Virus record (IMG/VR): IMGVR_UViG_3300044657_001121
Span: 1 to 26,955 of that record
From: a virus
Taxonomy: Duplodnaviria > Caudoviricetes
Length of the DNA stretch: 26,955 bases
Reading direction: 5' to 3' (one strand)
The position numbers and the translations under genes are program-made. The notes beneath the pieces are model-generated. The model worked only from the letters and a program-made list of their open reading frames with translations, was not told the origin of the DNA and did no database searches. Of the stretch, positions 20,376 to 22,497 are shown piece by piece; position 1 is the stretch's first letter, and every line of letters starts with the position of its first letter.

Positions 20376-20777
20376 CTACTCAAAAGCCAGACCGTGATAG
20401 CCTGCCAAATAAATGGCCGACTGCATTAAGCACATCGTTTCGATTCGGTCAGGTTTGTTGTCCCAATGCCGCAGCGCTTCTGCCAACGTGAACCAGCGGC
20501 AACCCGCGCCGATGTAGGCGACACCTTTTACGTTTGCGATGCACTTGCGATAACCGTCTGCAAAGCCAAGATCTAGCGCCCAAGATGCGTTAGCGCCGAT
20601 GCTTGCCCCTTCGCCGATGCTTGCCCATGCGCCGATGCTTGCCCCTTCGCCGATGCTTGCCCCTTCGCCGATTCTTGCCCATGCGCCTTCCGTAATCCAA
20701 CTCAACCCGGCAGGAGCAATAGACCAACCGTAAGAGTTTTTAGGCCAAAGTGCCGCAATATTTCCTGCTTCGATCAT
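20376..20777 (-). CDS. Hexapeptide-repeat (left-handed beta-helix-like) protein
   Basis: ASIGEG repeats; C-terminal IGAGCRWFT..EA..HW domain; AGGAG SD before ATG 20777. Confidence 0.75.
   Translation of the reverse strand: MIEAGNIAALWPKNSYGWSIAPAGLSWITEGAWARIGEGASIGEGASIGAWASIGEGASIGANASWALDLGFADGYRKCIANVKGVAYIGAGCRWFTLAEALRHWDNKPDRIETMCLMQSAIYLAGYHGLAFE
20594..20687. repeat. 18-bp tandem repeat x5 (CGCCGATGCTTGCCCCTT / ..CATG variants)
   Basis: Read directly; encodes the hexapeptide repeats. Confidence 0.95.
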
Positions 20778-20954
20778 TTCGACCACTCCTAATTGATTGA
20801 TTCGCTACTACCTACCGCCGCTTACTTCGCCGAACCCGAGGGCATAAGGCTTTTCGACACAGAGCGGATCGCTACTCCCTCACTCCCTTGTTACTGCGCC
20901 TTCGCTCTAAGGGACTCTGCTTGCGGTGCCTCGGTGTTTTGAGGCAGTAAGTAA

Positions 20955-20995
20955 ATGCTAGGGGATAACATTCCGCGTGTCAACACATTTCGTGC
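20955..20995 (-). promoter_or_regulatory. Leftward early sigma70 promoter (PL-like) with an 18-bp box
   Basis: Minus strand TTGACA(20983-20978)-17 bp-TAGCAT(20960-20955). Confidence 0.8.
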
Positions 20996-21040
20996 AAATA
21001 ACTCATTTATTTTGCTGTCGATATGGAAAACGCACAGGAT

Positions 21041-21069
21041 TTGACGTGCGAACAACAATCGTATACATT
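21041..21069 (+). promoter_or_regulatory. Sigma70 promoter driving the RNA cassette
   Basis: TTGACG-17 bp-TACATT; the predicted +1 falls at the base of the first hairpin. Confidence 0.75.
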
Positions 21070-21076
21070 ACGCGAA

Positions 21077-21158
21077 TTGCTGCGGACACAGCGAATAGTG
21101 AAGCCCTCAAGCTCATGCACATTGTGTCCGCAGTGTGCAGCAGCGCGAGGGCTTTTTT
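21077..21158 (+). ncRNA. C4/CI-like antisense RNA with its cognate target hairpin and a terminator tail
   Basis: Hairpin loop CGGACA (21083-88) exactly complements loop TGTCCG (21125-30); outer stem AAGCCCTC/GAGGGCTT with a T-tract. Confidence 0.7.
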
Positions 21159-21177
21159 ATTGCCCGTTCGCTGCGAA

Positions 21178-21580
21178 CTGATGACTAGATTATGGTCTTA
21201 GCTCCTTTGGGGTCATCGGTGTTACAGACGCCTACAAAGCACACAAGGGCGTCGCGGTGGGAGTGGATAGCAGCGACACATTAGAAATGCAAAGAACGAT
21301 ACCAGCGGCTTAAATGCGTCGTGGGGTAAGCCTGAAAAGAATCAGGAATCGGAAACGTAGCAAATGTGCCGTGATAGCTCGCCTAGAGCCGTGTGTGGGG
21401 ATCGATTAAATGGGTCTAAAGTCTAGGCAGGTGCGATGGAACATTATCGATAAGCGCACCCATTCAGAAAGCAACCGGAAACCTCAAATTACGCTGAATG
21501 ATTCCCTCAACCTACAGCTCATTGTGGGTTGGGGGAGTATTGAACCTAACCGCCCCGTTTCCTAAATCCGCTGTCATTGC
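21178..21580 (+). ncRNA. Putative large multi-branched structured RNA
   Basis: At least 7 local stems and 2 nested long-range helices; 17-bp hairpin with 4 G-U pairs; no ORF of 60 aa or more in the track. Confidence 0.6.
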
Positions 21581-21601
21581 TTAACTAGCACGGTAGAACA
21601 A

Positions 21602-21802
21602 ATGGATAGCCAATATCTTTGCAGGAAGTCAAAACCTAAAGTAGCGCATTTATGGAATGGGCGCGATACTGAGTGCAGGCAGCATTCGACGGGTGGGCTA
21701 AACCCGCGTAAATATGTCGTTTGGCGAAAGCTCCCTGAATTGCCAATATGCACAATGTGCGAAGCGGTGTGGCGTCGAAGCCAAGAAAAAAAGACCGCAT
21801 AG
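21602..21802 (+). CDS. 66-aa basic protein with a putative Zn-binding His/Cys/CxxC set
   Basis: AHLW....TEC...ICTMC; ends exactly at the right 18-bp box. Confidence 0.7.
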   Translation: MDSQYLCRKSKPKVAHLWNGRDTECRQHSTGGLNPRKYVVWRKLPELPICTMCEAVWRRSQEKKTA

Positions 21803-21842
21803 CACGAAATGTGTTGACATACGGCGTGTGGCGTGTTCCACT
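21802..21842 (+). promoter_or_regulatory. Rightward early promoter (PR-like) with an 18-bp box
   Basis: TTGACA(21814-19)-17 bp-TCCACT(21837-42) preceded by TGn; ATG 6 nt downstream. Confidence 0.65.
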
Positions 21843-21848
21843 ACGGAT

Positions 21849-22058
21849 ATGAAAAAGAAATCCCCTAAAGACTGTCTAGCGCAAGCCATTAAGGATGCGG
21901 GCGGTGCTGCGGCAATCGCAAAGCAATTTAAGTTCCCGTACACCAGCACGGTCTATAACTGGCAGTCGCGCGAAATCCCCGTCAAATGGGCGGTGAAGCT
22001 GTGCAAGATTAAAGGCGTGACCGTTACCCCTAACCAACTCAGGCCGGACGTATTTTGA
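21849..22058 (+). CDS. Cro-like HTH regulator (YdaS/Cro family)
   Basis: AI..AGG.AAIA...STVYNW...IP..LRPDVF signature; true start at ATG 21849. Confidence 0.88.
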   Translation: MKKKSPKDCLAQAIKDAGGAAAIAKQFKFPYTSTVYNWQSREIPVKWAVKLCKIKGVTVTPNQLRPDVF

Positions 22059-22141
22059 TTACCCCTCTCGACTGGATGATCGTCCTAATGTGCGTGGCCG
22101 CAGTAATGCTGGTCATCACGTTTATCGACCCCGATACATAG
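22055..22141 (+). CDS. 28-aa single-TM peptide
   Basis: TTGA overlap; MITPLDWMIVLMCVAAVMLVITFIDPDT. Confidence 0.4.
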   Translation: MITPLDWMIVLMCVAAVMLVITFIDPDT

Positions 22142-22179
22142 CCGCCTCCCCTCGGCTCGCGCGTCACGGGCGCGCGTTC

Positions 22180-22202
22180 GCATTCCTCGGAGTGCATTTT
22201 TT
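22180..22202 (+). terminator. tR1-like terminator after the cro-like gene
   Basis: GCATTC-CTCG-GAGTGC followed by ATTTTTT. Confidence 0.55.
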
Positions 22203-22290
22203 AAGGCATCGCATGTTTCCCTCCGGCTGGCGAGCTCTTCAAAAAGTAGTTTGCGCCTGAAATCGTTAAACCAGAACAGGGAGCGCTTGT

Positions 22291-22497
22291 ATGAGCACTA
22301 GAAACCAATGCCTGGCGATAGTCGCCGCGTTCAAGAACCGCTGGTTTGACACCGGCATCGCGTTCGACCATTTGCGCGTGCAAAGCATCCATCGCCGATT
22401 GTCAGACCTAGAAAGCATGGGCTACACGGTAGAGCGCAGGAAGCATCCGACGATTAAGCGCGCCAAGACGTACCGCATCACGGGGAAGGCAGCGTAA
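22291..22497 (+). CDS. Small winged-helix protein
   Basis: SIHRRLSDL...GY.V.R.....K.YRI pattern; GGGAG SD. Confidence 0.7.
   Translation: MSTRNQCLAIVAAFKNRWFDTGIAFDHLRVQSIHRRLSDLESMGYTVERRKHPTIKRAKTYRITGKAA

Follow-up and report, generated by a model that had tools for sequence, protein, structure and literature searches.

The 26,955-nt stretch of phage DNA analysed here (the window) very probably encodes on its plus strand a conserved, structured RNA, which belongs to a real and apparently undescribed family of large phage RNAs carried in a type of cassette that is likely antisense-gated. We put the probability that a conserved structured RNA exists at this place at about 0.95. Covariation among homologues, the match of the window to a covariance model built without it and the blank Rfam searches bear out the large, multi-branched, plus-strand RNA proposed by the first-pass annotation, which had overlooked the promoter and the CI/C4-like module lying upstream.

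Genomic setting of the element

The phage is long-tailed, and the window is a 27-kb piece of its genome, 43% complete. Its tail and lysis genes run rightward and an arm with Bet and ssb runs leftward; past the element, cro-like, RusA-like, O-like initiator, helicase and nin-like genes follow in the rightward direction. The RNA element occupies the divergence point, between the arms of a 28-nt inverted repeat with a TTGACA hexamer in each arm (Table 1). Judging by its overlap with the -35 of the PL-like promoter, the left arm is a likely operator. In lambdoid phages, cI sits at such a divergence point. No cI-like ORF appears between the repeat arms in the ORF list and annotation of the window; in this phage the cI slot holds a promoter, a hairpin module, the large RNA element and a 66-aa ORF. 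The stretch was found in aquatic and wastewater sequencing runs from 12 studies. In the first leftward gene (minus-strand ORF 20376-20786), an 18-nt repeat present five to six times at 20580-20690 gives a hexapeptide-repeat stretch (PF00132), which shows high depth in one sequencing run.

Table 1. Features of the divergence region, in window coordinates
Feature	Position	Strand	Evidence
PL-like sigma70 promoter of the leftward early arm (Bet-like recombinase, ssb)	20955-20983	-	TTGACA-17-TAGCAT, 10/12
28-nt inverted repeat, left arm	20968-20995		86% complementary to 21802-21829
Sigma70 promoter of the cassette, predicted start near 21076	21041-21069	+	TTGACG-17-TACATT, 9/12
Leader target (seqA-like), 11 nt	21080-21090	+	exact complement of 21123-21133 within the hairpin module
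P4-CI/P1-C4-like hairpin module, terminator-like stem and U tract	21094-21161	+	21076-21180 folds at z -5.86, 0/200 shuffles
Anti-leader, potentially pairing with 21089-21096	21166-21173	+	8 bp
Large structured ncRNA, about 395 nt	21178-21572 (to 21580 with an alternative outer helix)	+	folding, family HMM and covariance model, covariation
Two 5' hairpins, counterparts by position of family helices 1 and 2	21178-21219, 21227-21253	+	pairing; equivalence set by hand
Predicted pseudoknot PK1	21254-21258 with 21388-21392	+	5 bp, 2 G-U; family helix 3, 100% paired, 1/6 pairs two-sided
Predicted closing helix P1	21262-21268 with 21566-21572	+	7 bp; family helix 4, 95.9% paired, two-sided change 0
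P2 domain, 21273-21282 with 21363-21372 around a multiloop with hairpins 21305-21322 and 21331-21346	21273-21372	+	9/10 bp; family helix 6, 4/10 pairs two-sided
Predicted pseudoknot PK2 (GGAAACG/CGTTTCC)	21351-21357 with 21556-21562	+	7 Watson-Crick bp; family helix 9, 88% paired, changes one-sided only
Four abutting helices	21381-21428, 21430-21460, 21461-21500, 21501-21538	+	of 36 model pairs the window keeps 33, 12 of them through two-sided change (in an alignment that was fitted to the model)
66-aa basic His/Cys3 Zn-finger-like ORF	21602-21802	+	308 matches at E<=1e-3; H16, C25, C50 and C53 conserved; AlphaFold2 pLDDT 93
Inverted repeat right arm and PR-like promoter	21802-21842	+	TTGACA at 21814-21819; promoter assigned from the sequence, absent from the output of the promoter scan
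cro-like HTH gene	21849-22058	+	phrog_8008, phrog_35; PF15943

Homologues and covariation

A profile of the 66-aa ORF, made from 59 sequences (the query plus 58 out of 150 listed), led to 67 viral loci, one of which (L127) weakly matched the window RNA (E 0.007). A pattern made from three sequences then retrieved 16 viral loci, 15 of them homologues, and a second pattern added one more, its 34 matches comprising 15 loci already known, one new locus (L273) and 18 chance matches. A chance match (L152) and two duplicates (L161 and L166) were dropped before counting. The 14 homologous loci that were aligned lie on other phage contigs, 13 of them are distinct, and they are 72-100% identical. With the window counted in, RNAs of this family measure 355-395 nt.

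Covariation in this alignment lies far above both controls. RNAalifold found 89 pairs in the family alignment, 25 with two-sided change. In an 86-pair family model with three crossing helices, 97.3% of the cells are paired and 26 pairs change on both sides, compared with 15.5 in shuffled alignments (26 being reached in 0/500) and 0-6 in slid alignments; the model was derived from the same sequences on which it was tested, and the cells count sequences, not events. Twelve pairs show one-sided variation only, by way of G-U. Of the long-range helices, PK1 has one two-sided pair in the family alignment and P1 and PK2 have none; the alignment also contains long invariant unpaired runs.

The window itself was recovered by models from which it had been excluded. 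An HMM made from 13 members matched it with E 7.6e-5, and a covariance model of the 3' half, built from 13 homologues, matched 21376-21541 over all 167 positions with 39.4 bits and E 1.8e-10, a roughly calibrated value, the next best score within the window being 7.3 bits. In the corresponding alignment, which is fitted to the model itself, the window is 50-58% identical to the family and three of the 36 model pairs are broken. The model of the 5' half matched neither the window nor 19 other loci, and this half rests on hand mapping.

Thermodynamic folding was less informative. As the first-pass annotation had proposed, we compared the region 21170-21590 with shuffles: the plus strand folds at -140.6 kcal/mol (z -2.66, 2/100 shuffles as good), the minus strand at z -0.11 (41/100 as good). 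Among eight homologues the strand bias is inconsistent. Folded singly, these eight gave z values of only -1.5 to +0.9, no better than shuffles, so the case for an RNA rests on covariation and not on folding energy.

The family has no match in Rfam, and the first-pass annotation had not recognised it either. Rfam returned nothing for the window at gathering score, for 20800-22300 at E<=10 or over the RNA in nine family loci, its models including group I/II introns, RNase P, tmRNA and small ribozymes; ARAGORN found nothing in the window. By eye the element resembles RNase P and group I/II motifs, and this likeness was rejected as the motifs stand in the wrong order. Coding by short ORFs, which had been named as an alternative, was not found: no plus-strand frame is open across the family members, and in the window the element has no run of more than 51 codons free of stops. 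By blastn, named phages gave no match to the window and one 30-nt chance match to the family members, and plasmids gave none; no exact 20-mer was found in viral contigs. The 66-aa protein as sole query gave nothing, and a copy of the RNA was absent from all loci fetched through the Bet, helicase and cro-like proteins. A metagenome scan produced 90 matches, of which four are copies scoring identically to the window element and the rest are due to chance. None of the seven matches to the one pattern run against GTDB was real, and neither a prophage copy nor a host was found by that pattern. The Atlas returned only unnamed clusters with a low recognition score.

Predicted structure of the RNA

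All nine stems listed by the first-pass annotation pair as written and where they had been placed, the 17-bp hairpin 21501-21538 has exactly four G-U pairs, and the last four stems abut with spacers of 1, 0 and 0 nt. The long-range arrangement had to be revised. Of the two helices said to enclose these stems, GGAAACG/CGTTTCC is kept as PK2, and CAGCGG/CCGCTG (21303-21308/21568-21573) is replaced: its strands are able to pair, and it has no counterpart in the family model, where 21566-21572 pairs with 21262-21268 and 21305-21309 is part of a local hairpin. Rather than being nested, the long-range helices likely cross, giving a pseudoknotted fold.

In the 5' half, family helix 1 shows two-sided change in six of its seven pairs. 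The four helices predicted there from the family (PK1, P1, P2 and PK2) were all located in the window by hand mapping, in order, and were found all together in 0/5000 shuffles of the 5' half under rules set after looking. A short helix, P2a, found no pairing in the window in the register tried. Hand mapping of the 5' half supports the three predicted long-range helices. The last of the four abutting helices has a G-run on its 3' strand. A 28-nt direct repeat, 75% identical, links the upstream hairpin module (21099-21126) with this last hairpin (21499-21526).

Close variants of the window carry six substitutions and one deletion inside the RNA, and one of the substitutions (21529) breaks a model pair of the last hairpin. 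Most of the differences fall in the upstream module (21095, 21096, 21098, 21127 and 21146), with no change listed for 21178-21479 in four runs. Such clustering may represent immunity-type variation; for the variant at 21127, in the module loop, no matching leader change is listed.

The upstream CI/C4-like module

The order within the cassette is promoter, hairpin-terminator, large RNA and a variable ORF. The promoter scan reported three sites against 1.6 expected, which is weak alone, and promoter-like hexamers are visible by eye upstream of the homologues. Of 57 distinct loci with the Zn-finger ORF (ZnF loci), 31 have a module like that of the window at a distance of 238-458 nt upstream of this ORF, compared with 0/163 control windows; the script that detected them missed the window's own module, which has 7 bp in the script's register. 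Complementarity between leader and loop reaches at least 7 bp in 27 of the 31 module loci, the control mean being about 5, and leader and loop change together across loci. Three module types interchange before the same RNA family. By analogy with the phage systems compared below, the large RNA is likely gated by this hairpin. No terminator was seen after the large RNA and the ORF follows close behind in all 14 homologues, so that a cis-acting leader fits equally well.

Downstream ORFs

The 66-aa Zn-finger-like family is widespread in phages and has no Pfam or PHROG name; fold searches with it gave nothing at E<=0.001. Its conserved His and Cys residues suggest that it binds zinc. The ORF next after the RNA is an HNH gene in eight of the 14 homologues, a truncated HNH-type gene in one, the Zn finger in three and another ORF in two; given this variety, no single gene goes with the RNA. 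The first-pass annotation had considered a riboregulator of the downstream ORF. As the 66-aa ORF comes next in no more than 3/14 homologues, a regulator dedicated to it is unlikely.

The HNH proteins of the family are about 200 aa long and gave no RuvC match, and the ORF at L156 matches HNH families only. A scan for HNH downstream of ZnF loci gave 0/31 and 0/25, the scan having no positive control. Zn-finger-like domains are also found fused to HNH, DUF5710 or a Pif1-like helicase (P0002, P0036, P0034, P0050 and P0077); the Zn finger of P0002 is 50% identical to that of the window and is joined to the HNH type of the family loci.

Other RNAs in the same slot

The Rfam family Betaproteobacteria-1 (RF02932) occurs shortly upstream of the Zn-finger ORF in five loci (L085, L087, L088, L107 and L121), four of which have the hairpin module. 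It occupies the same slot as the large RNA, but its 120-position model matches neither the window nor nine family loci, and the large-RNA family models are unmatched in its loci; it could represent a sister, or a fragment, of some larger group. At about 2200-2400 of L085, L087, L088 and L121, Betaproteobacteria-1 lies behind a CI/C4-like module and seemingly extends past the 120-position model to the Zn-finger ORF.

In another group, that of L118 (four sequences), 16 of 99 pairs are two-sided. A model including the window gave no significant match in 20 loci with other RNAs in this slot, and its top four (L120, L148, L113 and L140, E 0.17-0.47) are all on the plus strand just upstream of the ORF, a placement that hints at an RNA superfamily. 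The models R1 and R3 gave no significant match in other RNA groups. In a Bet locus, L020:11365-11476 weakly matched a covariance model (20.6 bits, E 0.0016), which may be due to chance.

Several loci present further elements. A stretch of about 590 nt with promoter, module and RNA-like element (L122:1905-2494) is absent from the close relative L134, whose locus is otherwise 81-89% identical; this insert is a cassette of another RNA type. L089, L093, L102 and L103 have an RNA-like element of 230-310 nt, of another sequence type, behind a like module and directly after the terminase gene, and Rfam is blank there. In the 200 nt upstream of the ORF, L097, L104, L115, L133 and L137 carry ORF-poor leaders that end in a hairpin with two long G-runs on its 3' strand; that of L104 follows an O-like initiator gene. 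A G-run motif at most 200 nt upstream of the ORF, which the window also has, was found in 20/56 ZnF loci compared with 13/321 controls, nine of the 20 being one close group. L003:84-754 and L002:1-1714 are near-identical replication modules with different inserts (genes named by eye): in L003 an endonuclease-like ORF interrupts the first gene, and in L002 helicase- and methyltransferase-like ORFs lie upstream.

Family phages and expression data

The four near-complete family phages encode an SF2 helicase and a primase, with a ParB-like match in three (62/196 ORFs scanned), and in three of the four the distance from the primase to the RNA after it is at most about 1.5 kb. A tyrosine integrase was not found in these four genomes. 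Other cassettes adjoin terminase genes (42/89 ORFs scanned), and tRNA genes lie near two of the seven family loci scanned. When 15 kb were divided into 30 bins, reads of four RNA runs covered 27, 28, 6 and 22 of them, a spread in keeping with DNA carry-over. RNA-seq shares of 0.3-0.45 were rejected as a sign of a discrete RNA and are no evidence of expression, because coverage spans the whole phage.

Proposed function and alternatives

The reading that we prefer, at odds slightly short of even, is a stable, compact, processed phage RNA that would act in trans by binding protein, being released on read-through and gated by the antisense hairpin. It is preferred because stand-alone RNAs best match the predicted end-joining helix, the size and the lack of dependence on which ORF comes next. 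Transcription would likely start from the cassette promoter, and most transcripts would stop at the U tract near 21160, yielding a short antisense RNA that could pair with the leader as the P4 CI RNA does. Read-through would produce the large RNA, whose ends the three long-range helices would bring together. This RNA would likely be cut out as a stable, compact, protein-binding species. As lytic growth begins, it might act in trans, either as scaffold or as decoy, with the Zn-finger-like protein as a candidate but not obligatory partner.

An RNA of the put type, a factor-independent antiterminator, would act in cis on the nascent transcript, letting RNA polymerase read through downstream terminators in place of protein antiterminators. 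It has some plausibility, if an unlikely reading overall: a promoter precedes and a co-oriented ORF follows the RNA in the window and in 14/14 homologues, the RNA has the orientation of the terminase gene in the four near-complete phages examined, and the Q family PF06530 is present in 0/4 of those genomes, a negative that covers this one Q family. HK022 put likewise follows an early lambdoid promoter where no Q has been detected, with putR about 270 nt from its promoter; put RNAs, however, consist of two stems in about 70 nt (PMC9378689), compared with about 400 nt here. The RNA would also be unable to relieve the first terminator, because it lies after it. A role as replication primer, in which the RNA would hybridise to the template through its G-run and be controlled by antisense RNA, is more doubtful. 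ColE1 RNA II is the replication primer to compare. Primase or helicase neighbours are frequent (G002, G003, G005, L113, L118, L120, L143 and L122), the G-run is enriched upstream of the ORF as described above, and 0/5 family phages have a homologue of the window's initiator; yet an O-like initiator lies 1.5 kb downstream in the window, other cassettes stand beside terminase genes, the L118 group has no G-run, the GC-skew turning points are at least 3.6 kb from the RNA, and the G-run is base-paired in the model.

The remaining alternatives are less probable. HEARO/omegaRNA is the RNA partner of IscB, a RuvC and HNH nuclease, and the family RNA might likewise be the guide or mobile element of the HNH protein downstream, with Zn-finger-only loci as nuclease-less derivatives. 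The similarity is in layout, an RNA of about 350 nt directly upstream of an HNH ORF, as in 8/14 family loci; the fusion in P0002 and the presence of a different RNA cassette in L122 at a locus where L134 has none agree with such a role. The family differs in having no Rfam match and a stand-alone HNH of about 200 aa without RuvC match, and the HNH is dispensable: it is missing in intact form from 6/14 loci, truncated in L157 although the RNA there is identical to that of L167, and replaced in the window by the 66-aa Zn-finger-like ORF. No variable unpaired guide segment is evident in the family alignment, and we regard this partnership as improbable. Equally poor are the prospects of a ribozyme of a new class cutting or processing its own transcript. 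Large size, pseudoknots and long invariant unpaired runs, seen or predicted here, are reminiscent of catalytic RNAs, but no ribozyme or intron family appeared even at E<=10, no gene is interrupted and no junction skipping the RNA was found in seven alignments over six runs (contigs only). Chance stems in an intergenic spacer, or a structure selected in single-stranded DNA, would account for the modest z of the window and the near-zero z of the homologues; this reading is strongly disfavoured by covariation far above both controls, by the covariance-model match made without the window, by the 12 pairs varying on one side through G-U alone, and by the promoter and terminator module upstream.

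Beyond the trans-acting RNA preferred here, a wider scheme can be put forward tentatively: an all-RNA developmental switch of non-integrating aquatic phages, in which a CI/C4-type antisense RNA would gate a superfamily of large pseudoknotted effector RNAs replacing cI, N or Q, or the replication initiator. These RNAs would work on the host's RNA polymerase or serve as primers for DNA replication. The L118, L113 and L140 groups would belong to the superfamily, and perhaps Betaproteobacteria-1 as well.

Comparison with known systems

Neither the RNA family nor the cassette is described in the parts of the literature covered by a full-text search, among them those of PMC2864571 and bioRxiv 2026.09.22.753630; a term search of bioRxiv 2026.09.15.751765 showed no mention of phage. 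Six motifs were absent from those supplement files of PMC10690425 that were searched, and a fragment of the family RNA may be among the 10,000 candidates of that work.

The module of the window shares with P4 CI and P1 C4 the anatomy of leader target and antisense hairpin. In P4 and P1 small ORFs follow the antisense module, whereas in the window cassette the large RNA stands in their place. The Rfam C4 model (RF01695) is unmatched in the window, and as to a second downstream target (seqC-like) only the anti-leader 21166-21173 was seen. Antisense RNAs of this class are processed by RNase P and cause termination in trans. The P4 CI system is described as consisting of a promoter, a leader target, a short complementary hairpin RNA and early termination (PMC4825925), and processing of the CI and C4 RNAs is cited in PMC5499578.

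The large RNA itself is best compared with ROOL and GOLLD, which are described as phage-encoded, large, multi-junction, pseudoknotted RNAs of unknown function (PMC12286853, PMC5737381), their structures being solved without revealing a function (PMC12286853). Few bacterial or phage RNA classes are so large and complex, and these are enriched for catalytic or unusual functions (PMC5737381). The family has the same kind of large multi-junction, pseudoknotted predicted fold with covariation, its pseudoknots covarying weakly. It differs in that the Rfam models of ROOL and GOLLD are unmatched in the window and nine family loci, in length (ROOL and GOLLD, which form abundant, discrete RNAs that assemble into homo-oligomers, have about 580 and more than 800 nt) and in lying behind a CI/C4-like module with an ORF directly after it. 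The family adds a new fold of large ornate phage RNA, and the cassette itself offers hints to its role: the RNA has a promoter to itself, a likely antisense gate whose type has been studied well, a protein that may be its partner and, in the window, the place that the repressor occupies in lambdoid phages. Because the whole cassette measures less than 800 bp, it makes the function of a large ornate phage RNA directly testable.
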